From a virus, in the IMG/VR virus record IMGVR_UViG_3300049595_004693, positions 1-64,000 of that record: 64,000 nucleotides of DNA; one strand, given 5' to 3'. Positions 1,777 through 50,214 of this stretch are shown here, in pieces. A program made the position numbers and the translations under genes. The stretch's first letter is position 1, and every line of letters starts with the position of its first letter. The notes under the pieces are model-generated. The model saw only the letters and a program-made list of their open reading frames with translations, ran no database searches and had not been told where the DNA came from.

Positions 1777-3531
1777 ATGCTCCCTCAAAATCCGCAAGAT
1801 CCGAATAAACCGAATCAGCCTACTACCGGAGCACAGCAGCCTGCTCAGGCACCTGCAGCATCTTCTGGACGTTTTACAAATCTTCAAAAGTATATGAGGG
1901 CCAACGCCCCTGGCGAGTTGGCTGGAAAAGTGAGTGGACGGATTGAGCAGAGTGCTCAACAAGCGGGTCAAAAGATCAACGAAGCCGCGCAAGCGTTTCA
2001 ACAAGCTGCTCAACAAAATCGATTGGCTACGGGTCAAAATAAACAATTTGCCCAGCAGCAAATTCAACAAGCAGGACAAGGAGAAGTCTCAGAACAAGAT
2101 GCTCAGAAATTTCAGGGCATCGCTTCAGGAGGCTATCGTGGTCCTAGCGGTCTTCAGAATGCTCAAAGCCTTGCTGCGCGTGCTCAAAGTGCTGAGTCCC
2201 TTGGTAGGGCTACTGCTACGGAGGGTGGTCGCCAGGCGGTCCTCGGACAACTCTTCGGACGTTCCTCCTACGGAGCCGGACAACAAAAGCTAGACACTCT
2301 TCTTTTAGGTGCTGAGGGAGGTCTTCAGCAGTTACGTCAAGCACGTGCTAGAGCACAGGGTCTTTCTGATCGCGCGACGCAAGAAGCTCAGAAGGCTGAA
2401 CAGCTTGGACAAGCCTATCGCACTGAGGACGAGGGTTTCCGTCAAAAGGTGCAAGAGGATCTTACCGGATCCGCACGATCGTTAGATACTTCCGTCGCTG
2501 AACGAGTAAGAGCCTTGAATGAATCCGCTCCACAAGAGCTTGCTGCAGCTCAGGCAGAGCTTAAGGCGTTCCAAGAATCCGGCGCGCCTATTTCTCAAAA
2601 GACCGCAGACTTATTTGGTCTGTCAGAAGGGACTTCCACGTACGGAGCTGACCTGGCTGGTCTTGTTCGTCAAGGACAACAGGCCACTAAGACTACTGCG
2701 GCCACGGCGGAAGAGGCCCGCAGAGCGCAGGCTCTCGCCAAGCTTGGTGGAAATGTCGTAAATCTTCAGGATCTCAGCGGCACTTACGATCCCACTAAGG
2801 CGGCTTCATATAGAGCCATCGAAGCTGATACGGCTGGTCTTGATCCCTTACTGCAAGATGCACAGTCACAATATCAGCGCGATGCAGAAAAGCGTCGTAG
2901 CGAACTTTTAGGATGGACAGGCACATTCGGAGGTCATGTAGCTTTGCAGGCCGCCAAAGAGCAAAAGGCTAAGGATGCGCTCTTATCTAACTATAATGCA
3001 GCTATTGCCGAAGGCAAAACTCCAGAAGAAGCGGAAGCTATCGCTAATAAAAAATATTCTGAGAATATTTCAAATCTGGCGTGGATTGGTCAGAAACAAC
3101 TTCGAGACGAAACTATTACGGATCGTTCCGGAAGCGTAATTAATCCATTTGCGTATAATGAGCAGATGAATCAGTACGGCCTTTCCGGAGGACTCAACTA
3201 TGGTGGTTGGGAAGGGGAGTATGCTCAGGGAGCAATTCGCGGCATTCTGTCCAACCTTGCTCGTGGAGATGAAGACACGGTACTGGGAGCCGAGAATCTA
3301 GAAGATATATATGCTAGAGAATCTAGACCGAGAGAGTTAGAAAAGCAGTGGCGTGAATCTCAAGTCGGAAAGTCTCTAGCTGATCGAGAAGGCTTCTGGC
3401 AATTTGCCAATAAAAAAGCACAAGAACTTCAAAGCCGCAAACAGGCGGCCTACGATAAGTGGGACACTTCTCGTCAACGTAAAGTGACCATCGGTCCCGC
3501 AATTCAAAATATTATTTCCGGAGGACAGTAA
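1777..3531 (+). CDS. Internal virion/ejection protein
   Basis: Gln/Ala/Gly-rich, helical-looking, no Cys; follows the tail genes. Confidence 0.55.
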   Translation: MLPQNPQDPNKPNQPTTGAQQPAQAPAASSGRFTNLQKYMRANAPGELAGKVSGRIEQSAQQAGQKINEAAQAFQQAAQQNRLATGQNKQFAQQQIQQAGQGEVSEQDAQKFQGIASGGYRGPSGLQNAQSLAARAQSAESLGRATATEGGRQAVLGQLFGRSSYGAGQQKLDTLLLGAEGGLQQLRQARARAQGLSDRATQEAQKAEQLGQAYRTEDEGFRQKVQEDLTGSARSLDTSVAERVRALNESAPQELAAAQAELKAFQESGAPISQKTADLFGLSEGTSTYGADLAGLVRQGQQATKTTAATAEEARRAQALAKLGGNVVNLQDLSGTYDPTKAASYRAIEADTAGLDPLLQDAQSQYQRDAEKRRSELLGWTGTFGGHVALQAAKEQKAKDALLSNYNAAIAEGKTPEEAEAIANKKYSENISNLAWIGQKQLRDETITDRSGSVINPFAYNEQMNQYGLSGGLNYGGWEGEYAQGAIRGILSNLARGDEDTVLGAENLEDIYARESRPRELEKQWRESQVGKSLADREGFWQFANKKAQELQSRKQAAYDKWDTSRQRKVTIGPAIQNIISGGQ

Positions 3532-32184: not shown

Positions 32185-33066
32185 TTATTTTTTACCGTAT
32201 TGTGCCAACATATAGTCAGAATAACCCTCATTAGACTCATAGGAATAGCGGTCATAATCGTCCATCACGTCACGACTGCCAAAGGCACGCGCGGCCAATG
32301 AATCAAGGCTAGTGGTCGCGGTTAAGACTAAAGGTTTAATTTCTTGCTGATACACAATGTCATTACCTTCGAATACCGCGTGTGTGTTATCAAGGATTAG
32401 CTCCGGGTGCTCGACTTTCCACTTCATGTCCTTGGCTACGCGCTCGATGATATCGGTAGTGGTTGCAATAACATATGACCTAATAGTGCGGCACCACGCG
32501 ATATAAAGCGACGCGCGACTATCTCGAATAACGTGCGTCGTGCCTCTCTTGTCTTGAATGATCATCGCATAATAGCCTGTAACATTTTCCTCAATAGCTT
32601 CCATCCCCCCCTTTTCCCAGTACCTAAGAAGAATTTCTGTATCGCAAGTCGTGGTTAGCTTGGACTTTACTTCGTTAGTAAAGTCTTGCACGACTCCGTT
32701 ATGAATTAGCGAAACTTTGTTATTCATGAAGGGGTGGGTGTTCTCGATGGTGACATTATTAGTGCTAAGTCTCCCATGCGCCATGAATGATTTATTGCCT
32801 TTTTGCTTCACCTCTCCGAAGCAATTTCGAGTCTTCTCAATGATTGGTAGCTTGTCGGTGCGCGTATCTTGATTTGTGAATTGCAGAGGTTTCCAGTTGA
32901 AAGGCTTAGTGGTACGCTCACCGCTTATGGTGCCGTCCGATCCTAGAACGGAATAACCAAAACCATCCTTATCACTCAAGGCGCAAACTGCGTCGCGCAC
33001 GCTATTGATAAACTTAGAGTTAACATTCAAATTGCTAGCATCAGTCACCGCGAAAATCTTGCACAT
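32185..33066 (-). CDS. Class II (Ntn) glutamine amidotransferase
   Basis: N-terminal MC, DGFG, HGRLST, NTHPF, HNG, DTE. Confidence 0.9.
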   Translation of the reverse strand: MCKIFAVTDASNLNVNSKFINSVRDAVCALSDKDGFGYSVLGSDGTISGERTTKPFNWKPLQFTNQDTRTDKLPIIEKTRNCFGEVKQKGNKSFMAHGRLSTNNVTIENTHPFMNNKVSLIHNGVVQDFTNEVKSKLTTTCDTEILLRYWEKGGMEAIEENVTGYYAMIIQDKRGTTHVIRDSRASLYIAWCRTIRSYVIATTTDIIERVAKDMKWKVEHPELILDNTHAVFEGNDIVYQQEIKPLVLTATTSLDSLAARAFGSRDVMDDYDRYSYESNEGYSDYMLAQYGKK

Positions 33067-33093
33067 AATAAACTCCTGTTATTGTTATGATTA

Positions 33094-34281
33094 TTAAAAA
33101 GGCATTCCATCGCTACCCGTAGCGTCATATCCGGGCAATGGTCCTCCGTTAATGACCGCGCTAACGCTACCCTGAAGGCTAGGCGACACAATGACTTGCA
33201 TCGGTAGCGTCTGCGTGCTCTCCTCATTGTCGTCTAACACTTGATCAACTTCGGAGGACACCTCGGGGGAGAATTTCGCGACACGTTCGCGGATATATCC
33301 CCTCAAAGTCTCCGATGCGCCGACAAGATGCGCCACAACTTCCATGCTATCAACGCTAGACTTAATAGCCTTGCATTGCATAATGCCCTGAAGCAATTCA
33401 ATCCAAGATGCGATTTTAGACGCATCTGTGCTCCCACTATGGCCGCGAATCTCAAGCGTGCCGTACTTGGAAAGGCTATGCATATTCACAAACGCGTAAC
33501 GCGATCCCCCGCGCCTAGCGTTAATAGTAGTGGCGCAAAATCGGTTATCCCGGCGAGACTTAGGCAACATGCGCTTAAGAGCCGGGACACAATGAGCGAC
33601 ACGGTTAGCCTTGAGAGTCACCATGCGGCTAGACTCCGTGCGCATGTCAAAATGCACATGGAGCCCACAAGTACGGTTAACCCAACACCCTAGCTTATTC
33701 AATTCTGCGCAAACTTTAAATAGCGGCGACATGTCCGACTTTTTAAAGCTAACGCAGATCTCTTTACCATGTGACTCAGTGCCACACTCACACCGACCGT
33801 CATTGTCTTCTGTTTCTTCCATGCTACACGAGGAGTCATGGGGATTGAGTGATCCGTCATTTTTAATGGTGACAAATTTACTTAATCCTAAACCCCTGAT
33901 ATTTTTGGCAAACGCATTTTCCCTAGCCTGAGAAGTGAAAAAACACTCGATTTCTACACTAATCCACTCTCCCTCAAACCCCTCGGGATTTTTGGAGCTA
34001 TAAACTACGCGAGATAGCTCTACGATTTGAGAAACGGACCATTGCCCCTCATTACCATATTGATCAAGCCTATCGGCCAACATGTCGACACCTGCGCTGC
34101 GTAAATGCTTGCGATATGTCTGCAATGAACGCTTTATAACGTCCTTAAGTTCATCGGGCAATTCCCCCTTGTAGTTATCAATCAAAAACTTATAGGCGGG
34201 ATTGAGGTTGGCGATAAAAGCGGCTTTACGAGAATTTGACATATTAGCAAGCCTCCCATGTTTCAACGGTATTAAATTCAT
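33094..34281 (-). CDS. Putative amidoligase (COOH-NH2 ligase-type)
   Basis: VEIEC, DGSL, TCGLHVH, RY..VN, TLEIR; adjacent to the GATase. Confidence 0.8.
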   Translation of the reverse strand: MNLIPLKHGRLANMSNSRKAAFIANLNPAYKFLIDNYKGELPDELKDVIKRSLQTYRKHLRSAGVDMLADRLDQYGNEGQWSVSQIVELSRVVYSSKNPEGFEGEWISVEIECFFTSQARENAFAKNIRGLGLSKFVTIKNDGSLNPHDSSCSMEETEDNDGRCECGTESHGKEICVSFKKSDMSPLFKVCAELNKLGCWVNRTCGLHVHFDMRTESSRMVTLKANRVAHCVPALKRMLPKSRRDNRFCATTINARRGGSRYAFVNMHSLSKYGTLEIRGHSGSTDASKIASWIELLQGIMQCKAIKSSVDSMEVVAHLVGASETLRGYIRERVAKFSPEVSSEVDQVLDDNEESTQTLPMQVIVSPSLQGSVSAVINGGPLPGYDATGSDGMPF

Positions 34282-34944: not shown

Positions 34945-35029
34945 ACACAAAACCTTAATGATATCGCGGAATGCTGAGACGGAATGCTGTAAAACTTTCA
35001 GGCAGAGTCTAAGCCTTAGACACCTAGTC

Positions 35030-35325
35030 CCTATATATATATATATATATAAGAATATAATTATAATACATATATTAAGTATTATTAAATAGAATATAAT
35101 ACATATTAAGTATAATATAATAAGTATTAAGTAGATATTAATAGTATATAGTAACTATTATTAGTATATAGTTAACTTAACTAATATAAAGTAACTACTA
35201 GTATATAGTAGCTACTAAGATATATTAAGTATTTATATATAATATGAATCACTTAATAAAAATTAAGTGAACTTAGAGAGAGGCTCTAAGAGGATATAAA
35301 ACACTTGAGCGAAAGCGCAAGTGTG
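35030..35325. repeat. AT-rich low-complexity region with (TA)n, TATTAAGTA repeats and hairpins (candidate origin)
   Basis: ATATTAAGTA at 35072, 35103, 35222 and a variant at 35124; inverted repeats at 35249-35270 and 35301-35324. Confidence 0.55.
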
Positions 35326-35381
35326 TGAAAGGACAGGGGAATGAGAGATGAGAAAAGATGGAGGTACTAGCTCTGCAATTT

Positions 35382-35747
35382 CTATGCCAAGTCCCAATAT
35401 TCCTCACCCAATAAATAACTCGACTTGGTAGGATACTCGGTAACACTCAATGTCCCCAACACTTCGGAGTCACCATTGAGATAAAACCTAGTAACCTTAT
35501 GATTTTCAATATAAATTAAACTTGACAACATAGCTTTCTTAGCAATATCAAGTACTTGATTCTCTTGATAAGAGTCAACACAAATAACTAGAATAACACA
35601 TTGACCATTCTGTGTCAAGTATTGCAAAGGTATATTGCAATCTTTAAGCCAATTATAGGCCCATTGAGTAGCCTCTAAGTTAGTAGAACTAGAACGCTCT
35701 GAACGATTAAGATTTAAAATATATCCTTTATGCTCTAATGCAATCAT
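35382..35747 (-). CDS. Hypothetical protein (start uncertain)
   Basis: Open frame of about 120 aa. Confidence 0.4.
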   Translation of the reverse strand: MIALEHKGYILNLNRSERSSSTNLEATQWAYNWLKDCNIPLQYLTQNGQCVILVICVDSYQENQVLDIAKKAMLSSLIYIENHKVTRFYLNGDSEVLGTLSVTEYPTKSSYLLGEEYWDLA

Positions 35748-35767
35748 ATCATAGCCTTTCGTATAAG

Positions 35768-35920
35768 TCAAGCAGCTATAGACTCATTGTCGACCATGTT
35801 GGCCAACTTGTCAATCTCTAAAGCTAGCAGATTAGCTATCACATAATCGGTAGGACAAGCCTCAAGAGAGTCTCTTAGGGCTTTGATACTTCTGATTAGT
35901 TCTAATACTTCAGGTGTCAT
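35768..35920 (-). CDS. 50-aa hypothetical protein
   Basis: MTPEVLELIRSIKALRDSLEAC...; TTGACT-16-TATCCT upstream. Confidence 0.4.
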   Translation of the reverse strand: MTPEVLELIRSIKALRDSLEACPTDYVIANLLALEIDKLANMVDNESIAA

Positions 35921-36013
35921 ACAATTACCACGATATATCCTTAGGATATCAGGGAATGATATTGAGTCAAGGTTATTTTGTGGACTCTGATAACTCTCAT
36001 GCTATAGGGTATT

Positions 36014-36299
36014 GCATAGGCAATGCCAGAAATAAACTAATGATAATGCTATGTGTCAATGGAGATTAGTGTAGAACTTTTAGGCAGTGTATAGTTCTTA
36101 TGCACTCATAGTTTTTATGCAAGGACTATACCACAATAGCTTGGCATATATCTTGCAATAAAACATTTTGATTGGCAAGGGAATTGCTATAGCAAGAATC
36201 GTGCCAGATTAGAGCTGGCATAGAGCTTGCAGGGGGAATGCTGTGTGCAAGTATAGTGCCAGGCATGGGGATTGCAGGGGGGGTGCAAGAAGTGTGCCA
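36014..36299. promoter_or_regulatory. Array of nine sigma54 (-24/-12) consensus boxes in mixed orientation
   Basis: TGGYAH-N5-TTGC at 36119(-), 36142(+), 36173(+), 36192(-), 36216(+), 36247(-), 36285(-); one-mismatch boxes at 36261(+) and 36014(-). Confidence 0.85.
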
Positions 36300-36389
36300 G
36301 GGGGGGGGTAGGGTACTTTTTACGGGGATTAAATATCGATAGTGATATCCAACAGATAAGTCATTTTTCTCACAAATTACCGTGTTACC

Positions 36390-36399
36390 TAACAAGTTA
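36390..36399 (+). promoter_or_regulatory. TAACAAGTTA putative late promoter element
   Basis: 4 nt before the HNH ATG. Confidence 0.65.
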
Positions 36400-36403
36400 G
36401 TGT

Positions 36404-37318
36404 ATGGCAACATGGATGAAAAAAGAATGTTCTAAGTGTAAGAAATCACTAAGCTATGGCATAGTGAACACCTACTCTAACAGCTCAGTATACGCTATTA
36501 ATAAGCAGCTAAAGCCCTGGAACGGCTCTATATGCCCTCGATGCAATAGAGAAAAGAAAATAGCCGAGAAGAAGCTCGTAGTACTTGAGAACATAAAATG
36601 CCACACCTGTCAATCAGAATTTACCCCTCGCAATCGTCAGGCAAAGTATTGCTCTTCTAGATGTAGAGTGGTCATGACTATGCGGCGTAAAATAAAGCCG
36701 ACTAAGCCAAAAAACGACTGTGTAGTGTGCCTAACACCCAACTCGGCCACGAGATTATATTGCGGCAGCCAGTGTCAGTCAAAAGCTGCATACCTTAGAA
36801 ACAAGGTAGAACGAGTTTGTATCGAGTGTGGCAACTCTCCCGCTAAAAGCAAATACTGCTCCGCTACGTGTAGGTCAAAAGCTAACAGACGGCCCGCGAA
36901 ACCCAGATCGCATAAAGTAAAAAAATGTGTTACCTGCGGGTCGGAGTTCCGCCCTCGCGGAAAGCAGTTATATTGCGATAATCCCTGTCGCCGACCAAAA
37001 CCATCTATAAATCGAGAGAGTCTTAGAAAGTATAAAAAAATAGCTAGGAAGAAAAGAAAGCTGTGGGAACGTAGGGCATGTCCTCGTTGGGTTAAAGGAA
37101 GCGATTTATTAAAAATAGAGGCTTCTAAGCCTGGGCCAGAATATCATCTAGACCACATCATCCCACTAAAGCACCCTTTGGTGTGTGGACTTCACGTACC
37201 CGAAAATCTCCAATGGCTCAAAAAAGAAGAGAATGAGTTTAAGAACAATAAGTGGGACGGCACAGAGACTAACGAAAGTTGGAAGGTGGAGTTTGAGAAG
37301 TCCCGTTCTAAGTCGTAG
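36404..37318 (+). CDS. Free-standing HNH endonuclease with tandem Zn fingers
   Basis: Five paired Cys units; HLDHIIPL..VCGLHVPENLQ...N..K.N. Confidence 0.85.
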   Translation: MATWMKKECSKCKKSLSYGIVNTYSNSSVYAINKQLKPWNGSICPRCNREKKIAEKKLVVLENIKCHTCQSEFTPRNRQAKYCSSRCRVVMTMRRKIKPTKPKNDCVVCLTPNSATRLYCGSQCQSKAAYLRNKVERVCIECGNSPAKSKYCSATCRSKANRRPAKPRSHKVKKCVTCGSEFRPRGKQLYCDNPCRRPKPSINRESLRKYKKIARKKRKLWERRACPRWVKGSDLLKIEASKPGPEYHLDHIIPLKHPLVCGLHVPENLQWLKKEENEFKNNKWDGTETNESWKVEFEKSRSKS

Positions 37319-37344: not shown

Positions 37345-37638
37345 TTACAAATCCACCACAGCGGCCTTGTAGCTCACAAACTCATATGCGGCCACACCCT
37401 GTTCATTAACACCTCTGAGCCGATACTCCACTTGTTTTATGAAGTCCATACTAGGGATTCTATCTGAGCCTACGACGAGCCTAGGCACTATGGGCGCCAG
37501 TATAGGCACAACTAGCGTAGGCCCGCTGAAGTCCTGCACGTAGATAATATGCTTAATGCTCGCCACTTCGCCATCTTCGGTGTAATGTACGGGAGGGCCG
37601 AATAGTATTTTCGTGCTACGTCCACCTCTCATAAGCAT
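37345..37638 (-). CDS. Hypothetical protein
   Basis: Last gene of the operon. Confidence 0.45.
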   Translation of the reverse strand: MLMRGGRSTKILFGPPVHYTEDGEVASIKHIIYVQDFSGPTLVVPILAPIVPRLVVGSDRIPSMDFIKQVEYRLRGVNEQGVAAYEFVSYKAAVVDL

Positions 37639-38608
37639 CTAAAATAATCTCATCAGCCAGCTCAAGGTCTGGCTTCTCCGGTAAGGAGCTTCTCTGTTGA
37701 GCAGACACAACGTCGACCAACCCCTGCTCAATTACCTCGGCCACTTGCTCATAAGGAAGCTGTCCCGTTTTAATCTTCGTAAGAAGCTCCCTGTCAGGAC
37801 GAGGGAATGTAATATGCCCCGTACGCAGAAGCTCAACAGCCTGAGAATTTACGCGTACAGCGTGGGATAGAGCCTTCCAATCCACGCCTCCAGCAAGATG
37901 AGCCTTCTGAGCCCGCTTGCCATATTCGTTTAGCATCTTATTGGTAATCTCTAAAGCATACTTCACCTTGGCGTGAAACGGAATTTTGCGCCCGTTTATG
38001 TGAAGATGAGGGGCGTCAGTAGCGCCTTTAGGTCCACGACACATAATGATCTCAATAAGGGGTGTTTTTTCTAATGAGATGAGATCGGATGATTCCCTAA
38101 TCAGCCCATTAAGCCACGCCACATTCTGCTCTAACGTGGTGTCTAAATCTAGAGTTTCGAGAAGCTCCGCCGTACGCTTTAAAGCGTCCATTCTGGAACC
38201 TTTAATCCCGTATTTGGCGGCTTGCTGCCTAGCATACCCCATAAAGGCCGAGACGTTTTTAGAAATAAGGCGGTGCCTATTGTAGTATATCTCGTGCATT
38301 ACCTCAAAGCTCTTGCCCGCGTCTAGTGTTGTTTGTCGATATCCAAATAGTACATCTAACGCCACAGTTTGACCTTGCGTCAGAAGCTCTAAATAACGCG
38401 CTAGGCTAAAATACTCTTGGTCTACATCTTCCGCTGTGTTCCTTTCCGCGTGCTCTTTTGAGCGGGAAATAGAAATGGTTGGTCGCGAGCGACCTAAGAA
38501 TAGCTCTTTTTTAGATGGGATATATACTCCCTTATAATCTTTGTCAGACTCCGGAGTATTGGTGCCATATAAGTGGCTCCCAAAGAGCATTTTAAAACAC
38601 AGATTCAT
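37616..38608 (-). CDS. Pol-beta-superfamily nucleotidyltransferase (RlaP/NrdC.11-like)
   Basis: GSHLYGTNTPESDKDYKG; K.LSHAVR; LL.IK.G. Confidence 0.85.
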   Translation of the reverse strand: MNLCFKMLFGSHLYGTNTPESDKDYKGVYIPSKKELFLGRSRPTISISRSKEHAERNTAEDVDQEYFSLARYLELLTQGQTVALDVLFGYRQTTLDAGKSFEVMHEIYYNRHRLISKNVSAFMGYARQQAAKYGIKGSRMDALKRTAELLETLDLDTTLEQNVAWLNGLIRESSDLISLEKTPLIEIIMCRGPKGATDAPHLHINGRKIPFHAKVKYALEITNKMLNEYGKRAQKAHLAGGVDWKALSHAVRVNSQAVELLRTGHITFPRPDRELLTKIKTGQLPYEQVAEVIEQGLVDVVSAQQRSSLPEKPDLELADEIILDAYERWT

Positions 38609-38981
38609 TCAAACCCTACGTAGTCTAGGAAAGCTTGATAACCTTTGGTAGAGTCGCAATTTGAATATTCCGCCAAGTCGGCCTCAAATAAAAGCTCAGG
38701 AGTAAACACACTAGGCGCCAGCTTATTTAGCTTTTTAAAGAGGCTACTAACGCAGGCAGGGCACCCGCTGTCCGCAGTAGCACATATTCTGGCGATATTT
38801 AAAGCTTGCTCTCTAGTCATTTATCCCCCACAGGAATTTCAATAGTGAACAATAAAACGAATGGAGATATCACCGCGAGCGCCGCTATACAAATAGCAAC
38901 TGCTAAAAGACCTGCGGGCGCTATCAGCATGAGCCCAATGCGCTCAGGCCATTTTAACTTTCTAGTTTTTCTTAATTTCAT
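38605..38981 (-). CDS. Two small genes (38605-38820 CxxxxxGCxxC; 38817-38981 TM peptide)
   Basis: ATGA-coupled; the second was translated by hand (MKLRKTRKLKWPERIGLMLIAPAGLLAVAI...). Confidence 0.45.
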
Positions 38982-39582
38982 TTAACACTTCCTCTAAGCT
39001 AGCTGGACGCATATACCAAGTGGCGCCTGGCGCGTCAACGCCTACGTTTAACATTAGTGTACCATTAGATGTTCGCTTTGTCAACCAGCGCTCATGAACG
39101 TGCCCGCAGAGGAGCGTCAGCCCTTCATCTTTGGGGCGATGCTTGAGGTAGCGAATTGTTGTCGGCTGATCCTGATAAGTGTCTTCTACATCTTCGTAAG
39201 GGAAATGGCACAAGGCGAAGCGCTCATCTTCTAGAACAAGCTCTAGTTGCGTTTGTACAGAAGCCCACCCTAAGTCGAGATACTTCTGAACCCAGGTATG
39301 ATACTTCTCGGGAGTTTTGCCCTTATTGGAGGAATGAGGCTTATCATGATTTCCTAGGATAAGATGCTTAGTGCCGTTGAGTCTATGTAGCACGGCCTCC
39401 ACCTCACGTTCATGGAAACTAAAGTCTCCTAAATGATACACTAGATCCGTAGGACCCACCTGAGCGTTCCAGCTATTGATGAGTACCTCGCGCATCTCTT
39501 CTACGTTCCGAAAGGGTCTATTGCAGTACTTAATTATATTCGCATGCCCGTAGTGAGTGTCGCTAGTAAAGAATACGCTCAT
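38962..39582 (-). CDS. Calcineurin-like metallophosphoesterase
   Basis: SDTH, LGD, GNHD, GHVH, NVGVD. Confidence 0.92.
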   Translation of the reverse strand: MSVFFTSDTHYGHANIIKYCNRPFRNVEEMREVLINSWNAQVGPTDLVYHLGDFSFHEREVEAVLHRLNGTKHLILGNHDKPHSSNKGKTPEKYHTWVQKYLDLGWASVQTQLELVLEDERFALCHFPYEDVEDTYQDQPTTIRYLKHRPKDEGLTLLCGHVHERWLTKRTSNGTLMLNVGVDAPGATWYMRPASLEEVLNEIKKN

Positions 39583-50204: not shown

Positions 50205-50214
50205 TAACAAGTTA
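50205..50214 (+). promoter_or_regulatory. TAACAAGTTA putative late promoter element
   Basis: Start of the packaging operon. Confidence 0.7.

Follow-up and report, generated by a model that had tools for sequence, protein, structure and literature searches.

Nine sigma-54-type boxes, in both orientations, were found in a gene-free gap of about 290 bp (36014-36299) in the genome of an uncultured phage, and a scan of IMG/VR detected face-to-face pairs of such boxes at at least 120 viral loci. Judged from the sequence, host sigma-54, with or without the core polymerase, is very probably the protein that binds them and by far the likeliest candidate. The results point to a position-bound element, putatively a docking or promoter element for this host enzyme rather than a free-floating sponge.

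The box array and its setting in the phage genome

The window analysed is the first 64 kb of the 78.8-kb IMG/VR virus record IMGVR_UViG_3300049595_004693, which is 93% complete according to CheckV and has no end repeats. The phage gene set comprises a family-A DNA polymerase, a primase-helicase, a ribonucleotide reductase (RNR), terL and a portal protein. Lake and freshwater metagenomes contain the phage DNA: in each of five runs from five separate studies, half or more of the sampled words of the stretch were present, and one of these runs is the probable source sample. In INPHARED, the array region and the ORF at 1777-3531 had no match, and terL had distant matches only (at most 31% identity). 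No RNA run was found to hold the 64-kb stretch among the public sequencing runs. Logan contigs covering the stretch were obtained from four public runs and, being at least 99% identical, they are uninformative on selection. Contigs from three of these four runs ended at 36241-36318, at runs of five, seven and nine G, and one public contig crossed the array and the G runs unbroken (35068-36388). Since homopolymer G runs break assemblies, false 'genome ends' beside such arrays are possible in metagenome assemblies.

The array sits in a 483-bp divergent gap between a 50-aa ORF (35768-35920, minus strand) and its rightward neighbour, an HNH endonuclease ORF of 304 aa (36404-37318, plus strand; phrog_1271, E 9e-18). 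The 50-aa ORF is the first of a leftward gene block that spans from 35920 down to about 8.3 kb; it heads a set of small unknown ORFs, after which come, in leftward order, amidoligase, GATase, RNR, primase-helicase and DNA polymerase. GC skew in this phage follows gene direction only. Between the array and the first leftward ORF lies a sigma-70-like promoter candidate, TTGACT-16-TATCCT with TG (35943-35970, minus strand), recognized by consensus match only. A recurrent phage motif, the exact 10-mer TAACAAGTTA, was found just ahead of the HNH ORF (36390-36399, plus strand), and its second copy (50205-50214) lies ahead of the packaging and structural block, which fits a candidate phage-specific late promoter. 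The amidoligase (PF12224) and glutamine amidotransferase at 32185-34281, left of the array, and an RlaP-type nucleotidyltransferase (PF10127) and metallophosphoesterase at 37616-39582, right of it, are candidate base-modification and RNA-repair modules. Neither side gave useful relatives for synteny: L008, found via the nucleotidyltransferase neighbour, had only that single gene in common with this phage, and the amidoligase relatives were at most 38% identical and none of them had boxes.

The original prediction had listed nine GG-N10-GC boxes here, eight of them within 181 bp. All nine were recovered at the same coordinates and on the same strands, eight of them indeed lying at 36119-36299, and the GG and GC of the boxes are exactly 10 bp apart within TGGCAC-N5-TTGC. 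The outermost leftward box, TGGCATTGCCTATGC (36014-36028, minus strand), is weak (score 12.5) and stands about 80-95 bp before the first minus-strand ORF. Between it and the main array (36068-36118) are the decayed box-like 17-mers TGTAGAACTTTTAGGCA and TGTATAGTTCTTATGCA and an AT-rich stretch. The 17-mers were tried as enhancers upstream of two isolated boxes and rejected, since they are mutually dissimilar and at 36068-36103 resemble decayed boxes. The main array opens with TGGTATAGTCCTTGC (36119-36133, minus strand), back-to-back with TGGCATATATCTTGC (36142-36156, plus strand) across an 8-bp gap. Then come three face-to-face pairs. The first, TGGCAAGGGAATTGC-TATA-GCAAGAATCGTGCCA (36173-36206; boxes 36173 plus and 36192 minus), is a canonical 34-bp pair with the geometry that is dominant in other phages. 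The second (36216-36261; boxes 36216 plus and 36247 minus) has a 16-bp centre holding a G5 run (36232-36236), and the third (36261-36299; boxes AGGCATGGGGATTGC at 36261 plus and TGGCACACTTCTTGC at 36285 minus) has a 9-bp centre formed by a G7 run (36277-36283). A G9 run and then GGG (36300-36313, plus strand) follow immediately after the last box. A tenth, isolated consensus box, TGGCATAGAAATTGC (35375-35389, minus strand), lies at the upper border of the neighbouring non-coding gap (34949-35381).

Taken as consensus boxes, the nine held up in part: six are consensus-grade, and three are weaker, having ATGC instead of TTGC (36014), an initial AGG (36261) or TGGTA (36119). The eight boxes at 36119-36299 are preceded by C, T or G, and an A or T comes after TTGC. 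All N5 spacers differ, as predicted, some of them having TATAG or ATAG in common. The predicted distances between the -12 elements of the face-to-face pairs (4, 16 and 9 bp) were also found. The term 'convergent', used for these pairs, is right for the orientation of the boxes but not for the predicted transcripts, which would diverge from starts about 19 bp apart for the 4-bp gap.

The clustering of the boxes is marked. In the 64-kb window, TGGYA-N6-TTGC was matched 8 times, whereas 100 shuffles gave an expectation of 0.95 and never reached 8; seven of the matches fall inside 181 bp. With the stricter TGGCA-N6-TTGC, 7 matches were obtained in the whole 78.8-kb record, all at 35375-36299, and the reversed control pattern had none across that record. 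A scan with an RpoN weighted matrix, which the original prediction had proposed, likewise had its top-scoring boxes, with one exception, at 35374-36299. The prediction that no credible ORF lies inside was also upheld: only a 95-aa ORF (36126-36413, minus strand) and a 42-aa ORF (36272-36400, plus strand) run across the gap. The former, the sole gap ORF scanned, had no Pfam match and is proline-rich because of the C runs. A structured non-coding RNA was considered and rejected, since the gap had no Rfam match at E up to 1, its fold was no better than that of shuffles (z = -1.3) and the N5 stretches of paired boxes are non-complementary.

The same element in other phages

IMG/VR was scanned with TGGCAY-N5-TTGC, a gap of 1-30 bp, then GCAA-N5-RTGCCA, and the Y, R and W flank positions were left unspecified. 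The at least 120 viral loci detected compare with about 6 expected by chance, which is our own rough estimate for an assumed collection size of ~6e10 bases. Among the matches listed, the gap between the -12 elements was 4 bp in 52 of 152 and 3-7 bp in 120 of 152, and the N5 of the two arms were non-complementary, so that the pairs are not hairpins. The half-sites of other phages (246 among the matches listed) agreed with the extended consensus at -27 (Y), -20 (R) and -11 (W): they had a Y before TGG (T 50%, C 23%), an R after TGGCAY (G 58%, A 38%) and a W after TTGC (A 45%, T 37%). The boxes can thus be called sigma-54-type sites, as had been suggested, with a consensus match that includes unselected flank positions. 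Locus GC ranged from 30 to 68% among the matches listed, the motif being unchanged throughout. The centre between the -12 elements is where melting of sigma-54 promoters begins. This centre lies 17-22 GC points under locus GC in low-, mid- and high-GC phages, unlike the N5 and the outer flanks, which follow locus GC.

Many of the loci among the matches listed had 4-11 boxes within 300 bp, compared with 8 in this window. Their packing was regular (also among the matches listed), with face-to-face gaps of 4-5 bp, back-to-back gaps of 5-10 bp and tandem boxes 26-29 bp apart from start to start. Such overlap and tight packing make it impossible for every box to hold a holoenzyme simultaneously. 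Other layouts were observed as well, namely six co-directional boxes about 55 bp apart (L057:1454-1750) and co-directional doublets about 26 bp apart (one 38 bp), repeated every 0.7-1 kb (L063:2055-4550). The matches of the bacterial-genome scan were set aside, as they were mostly a fixed ~150-bp Leptospira repeat, an unrelated family fitting the pattern by its own sequence. In Leptospira yanagawae and relatives (L144, L170, L192) this conserved, imperfectly palindromic repeat lies between co-directional gene cassettes of ~1 kb. It occurs on many small contigs of saprophytic Leptospira, its core fits the face-to-face pattern with a fixed N5, and the whole resembles an array of attC-type recombination sites.

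Seven related arrays (L025, L031, L040, L049, L058, L064 and L099) were aligned. The majority base accounted for 96% in core box columns, 84% in N6 columns, 66% in flank columns and 51% in between-box columns, and invariant columns made up 74%, 37%, 31% and 22%, respectively. This supports selection acting on the boxes and not on a duplicated sequence, and agrees with the earlier proposal of selection on protein binding.

We also looked at the position of the element. The ORFs of all loci were clustered, and among the matches listed terL was present within 65 loci. The element was upstream of terL in all of these 65, mostly by 0.8-2 kb. Divergent gaps made up 50.6% of the box-bearing gaps and 11.2% of the other gaps of the same loci, among the matches listed. 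Whole-record scans detected one cluster per genome in most records and exactly one pair in several complete genomes. The array of this phage stands 14.6 kb away from terL, the region upstream of terL has no boxes and a contig bridges the array; adjacency to terS and terL and ends at the site, which would mark a cos or pac site, were thus not found here. Consensus sigma-70 promoters that face outward flank the array in the L031 group, which means that both arms can be transcribed without the array. These arrays have 3-4 palindromic units with a period of 41-47 bp, beside G/C runs and conserved non-coding blocks. One such block, AAATAGGTGAAAATTAGGAATATTAC, flanks the arrays of the group together with GTG-rich short repeats (e.g. 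L031:8480-8560).

As an alternative, the original prediction had offered a protein clamp that would help the genome to enter or protect one of its ends. Two near-complete linear records have a single cluster, located 270-530 bp from the right end, and in one of them a TerS-like ORF begins 209 bp from the left end. Among the matches listed, contigs of at least 20 kb had the element within 1.5 kb of an end in 12 of 60 cases against 4.1 expected, a hint that is confounded because the G runs themselves break assemblies, as in three of four runs for this phage. Closeness to contig ends was therefore down-weighted as proof of physical termini. The G/C runs were likewise rejected as a part of the module: the figures of 81% vs 26% had been obtained with mostly coding controls, and G5/C5 runs were only 1.8-fold enriched when compared with other non-coding gaps.

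Candidate binder and possible roles of the array

Sigma-54 stands out as binder because the consensus match is detailed and independent of both GC content and gene content. ORF clustering gave no protein family common to all loci apart from terL, among the matches listed. The same motif at 30-68% GC, with no common phage protein, fits a host factor conserved across phyla, and sigma-54 is described as such in the abstract of PMC12316311. In addition, rpoN was detected in four of five array-bearing bacterial bins, the fifth being a 0.9-Mb fragment. The sigma-54 activator family PF00158 had no match in this phage (G000) or in five other array-bearing records, and the Pfam model of the sigma-54 DNA-binding domain had none in this phage and other array-bearing records (five records). 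The AAA+ activator and upstream sites that characterize a sigma-54 promoter were accordingly not found in the phage; a host activator is possible. In 32 loci, the first gene after the array is an AT-hook ORF of ~135 aa (L025:3869-4276 plus 31 homologues, of which 23 were aligned as A1) that carries two AT-hook-like GRP motifs (PF02178, E 2e-4) and is followed by endolysin and terL. Neither PHROG nor PDB gave a match for it, and it may represent an undescribed type of small terminase; the family is missing from this phage.

The reading that we favour, although tentatively, is that the array consists of overlapping, bidirectional, enhancer-dependent sigma-54 promoters, or of docking sites, that head the leftward early arm. 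Host sigma-54 RNA polymerase would dock on the overlapping -24/-12 sites, in both orientations, in a divergent non-coding hub that heads the leftward early, DNA-metabolism block and faces the HNH gene. The holoenzyme would be parked as closed complexes, one per face-to-face pair at a time, and each pair would be a compact bidirectional enhancer-dependent promoter with starts about 19 bp apart. Since the phage encodes no activator, firing would depend on an active ATPase activator from the host, and the multiple copies would raise the odds that the hub is occupied. With G5 and G7 at the melting site of two of the three pairs here, those pairs may stay closed once bound, or else G-rich transcripts may run rightward from them across the G runs.

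Several results are consistent with this promoter or docking reading. The boxes fit TGGCAC-N5-TTGC, down to the unselected Y, R and W flanks, and the core columns are the best conserved in the seven related arrays. The divergent context (50.6% vs 11.2%) goes well with the palindrome of the pairs, which suits divergent symmetry, and the centre, 17-22 GC points low, looks meltable. There is precedent for sigma-54 in phage YuA, rpoN is present in four of the five bins, and neither an RNA family nor a significant fold was found. Other results speak against promoters. Besides the lack of a PF00158 activator in this phage and in five array-bearing records, sigma-70 promoters already serve both arms in the L031 group, and a sigma-70-like site lies left of the array here. 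Box packing is tighter than the holoenzyme footprint, and the inner boxes face other boxes. The box nearest to terL faces away from it in 21 of 29 arrays among the matches listed, and in some large phages boxes face backwards at gene ends. The flanking genes are distant (medians 450-530 bp), and the G-run centres of two of the three pairs here should resist melting. The original claim that the boxes cannot all be ordinary mRNA promoters is supported.

A strong rival explanation, although less likely than the one favoured, is that the array is a cis anchor without transcription, sigma-54 or its holoenzyme being a host accessory that would mark a unique site for work at the DNA level. This could be the start of replication (e.g. 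with an R-loop or a G-quadruplex as primer at the G runs), the start of packaging, or the holding or protection of the DNA that enters first. In T7, promoters at the genome ends (phiOL, phiOR) and the primary origin serve DNA metabolism. An anchor would account for the single site or cluster per genome in several complete genomes, the location upstream of terS/terL in 65 of 65 loci among the matches listed, and the iteron-like layout of palindromic units at a 41-47-bp period between outward sigma-70 promoters. It would also suit the two near-complete linear records whose single cluster is found 270-530 bp from their right end, with a TerS-like ORF at the left end of one, the 12 of 60 contigs of at least 20 kb with the element within 1.5 kb of an end (4.1 expected; among the matches listed), and the G-run centres here, which should favour closed complexes. 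Against this, the array of this phage is 14.6 kb from a terL that has no boxes upstream, the contig at 35068-36388 bridges the array and the G runs, and assembly breaks at G runs can alone explain the closeness to contig ends. Moreover, G5/C5 enrichment is only 1.8-fold relative to other non-coding gaps, and the G001 contig ends do not coincide with its G/C runs. In its general form, the idea is that many phage lineages keep a landing pad for a silently binding polymerase, the parked holoenzyme being a structural mark and not a source of mRNA; we regard this as conceivable but doubtful. If true, such a pad would establish a new class of cis elements that depend on a host factor.

It is unlikely that the boxes are iterons for a phage DNA-binding protein (a replication initiator, small terminase or repressor) with a superficial likeness to sigma-54 sites. 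The palindromic units, regular periods and hub position do recall lambda ori iterons and cosB R sites. The conserved AT-hook ORF lies directly downstream in 32 loci among the matches listed, and TGGCA and TTGCA also allow a reading as a direct repeat of 11 bp, a layout that OmpR/PhoB-type proteins bind. However, the match spans about 11 positions at the exact sigma-54 spacing, unselected flanks included, and the half-blocks differ systematically (GG vs TG), as they do in sigma-54 sites. The element is also found beside unrelated terS types, in phages sharing almost no genes and at 30-68% GC; the AT-hook family is absent from this phage, and no Sigma54_DBD-like protein was found in five records. 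Of the parts of an iteron-type origin, repeats and an AT-rich stretch (36030-36118) were seen in this window, and no initiator was identified.

The role given first in the original prediction, a decoy acting in trans by which the arrays, multiplied with the genome, would titrate away sigma-54 or its holoenzyme and shut down host functions that depend on sigma-54, is very unlikely. Sigma-54 holoenzyme forms stable closed complexes, and sigma-54 is present at low copy number. Many predicted high-affinity sites in both orientations without a gene to serve, the G runs in the melting region of two pairs, which suit sites that bind and do not open, and the lack of a phage activator would all agree with titration. 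The sponge does not fit the position of the element, since a decoy would work anywhere, yet all 65 loci with a terL have the element on its upstream side, and 51% of the box-bearing gaps are divergent, vs 11% of other gaps. The single pairs of several complete genomes are too few to titrate anything. In the arrays, boxes that overlap or stand 26-29 bp apart cannot all hold holoenzyme at once, so that decoy capacity would be wasted, and the centres, which are AT-rich throughout the class, point to sites made for opening. Finally, a chance cluster or a simple tandem duplication without function is extremely improbable: although some N5 have TATAG or ATAG in common and decayed copies adjoin the array, no shuffle out of 100 reached the observed count, the viral loci number at least 120 against roughly 6 expected (for an assumed ~6e10 bases) with a sharply peaked geometry, and core columns are more conserved than spacers.

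Known systems and significance of the array

The original prediction knew of no characterized precedent, and our full-text literature search agrees, having found no description of sigma-54 box arrays in phages. Bacterial sigma-54 promoters have the same bipartite sequence, spacing and flank preferences as the phage boxes (RpoN -24/-12 consensus YTGGCACG-N4-TTGCW; regulons surveyed in PMC12316311, PMC4591121 and PMC3844500). Binding without opening is known for bacterial sigma-54 sites, and E. coli is known to have intragenic or orphan ones. In bacteria, each site stands alone, points one way and has its enhancer about 100 bp upstream. In contrast, the phage arrays have 4-11 sites in at most 300 bp, in both orientations and frequently paired face-to-face at a distance of 4-5 bp; located in phage hubs, they have no recognizable enhancer and no phage-encoded activator.

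Sigma-54 dependence of promoters has been described for Pseudomonas phage YuA (Ceyssens et al. 2008, as cited in PMC10914365). YuA (NC_010116) is alike in being a lytic phage that relies on host sigma-54 for some promoters, and differs in having three single co-directional promoters in its structural module, with no array and no palindrome. The fragments annotated there as '-24/-12 consensus sequence' (L262; 38392-38570, 40888-41035 and 47152-47312) contained no box scoring at least 12 on our own scale and none close to TGGCAC-N5-TTGC, and YuA was therefore rejected as a look-alike in sequence.

Bidirectional promoters of another sigma family offer a second comparison. Warman et al. (2021) reportedly described sigma-70 promoters in which symmetric -10 elements give divergent starts about 18 bp apart. 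Here too, opposite-strand promoters would be interleaved in divergent gaps, with starts about 19 bp apart, but the symmetry comes from two complete 15-bp sites and not from a shared hexamer. The iterons of lambda-type origins and the R sites of cosB work with the host factor IHF. They resemble the arrays in having several dyad units at a unique non-coding site by packaging or replication genes and a host accessory protein; they are sites for a phage initiator or small terminase, whereas the repeated unit here is a candidate host polymerase site. In T7, the early promoters A1-A3 and the end-proximal phiOL and phiOR have roles beyond mRNA, in DNA entry, replication and concatemer processing. These too are clusters of polymerase sites, in T7 near a genome end and pointing inward, but they are served by sigma-70 or the phage polymerase and need no activator to fire.

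To our knowledge, sigma-54 polymerase is the only form of bacterial polymerase that binds promoters stably and yet stays silent until an ATPase trigger. If phages of many host phyla have their arrays at one fixed control point, a key step of infection may be tied to the signalling state of the host, and the states possibly sensed through sigma-54 are nitrogen status, membrane stress and RNA damage. Alternatively, the parked enzyme may be a structural mark on the phage DNA. Either would be, if true, a new principle of phage-host control, and the array would be a sequence signature by which phage hubs and rpoN-positive hosts may be predicted in metagenomes.
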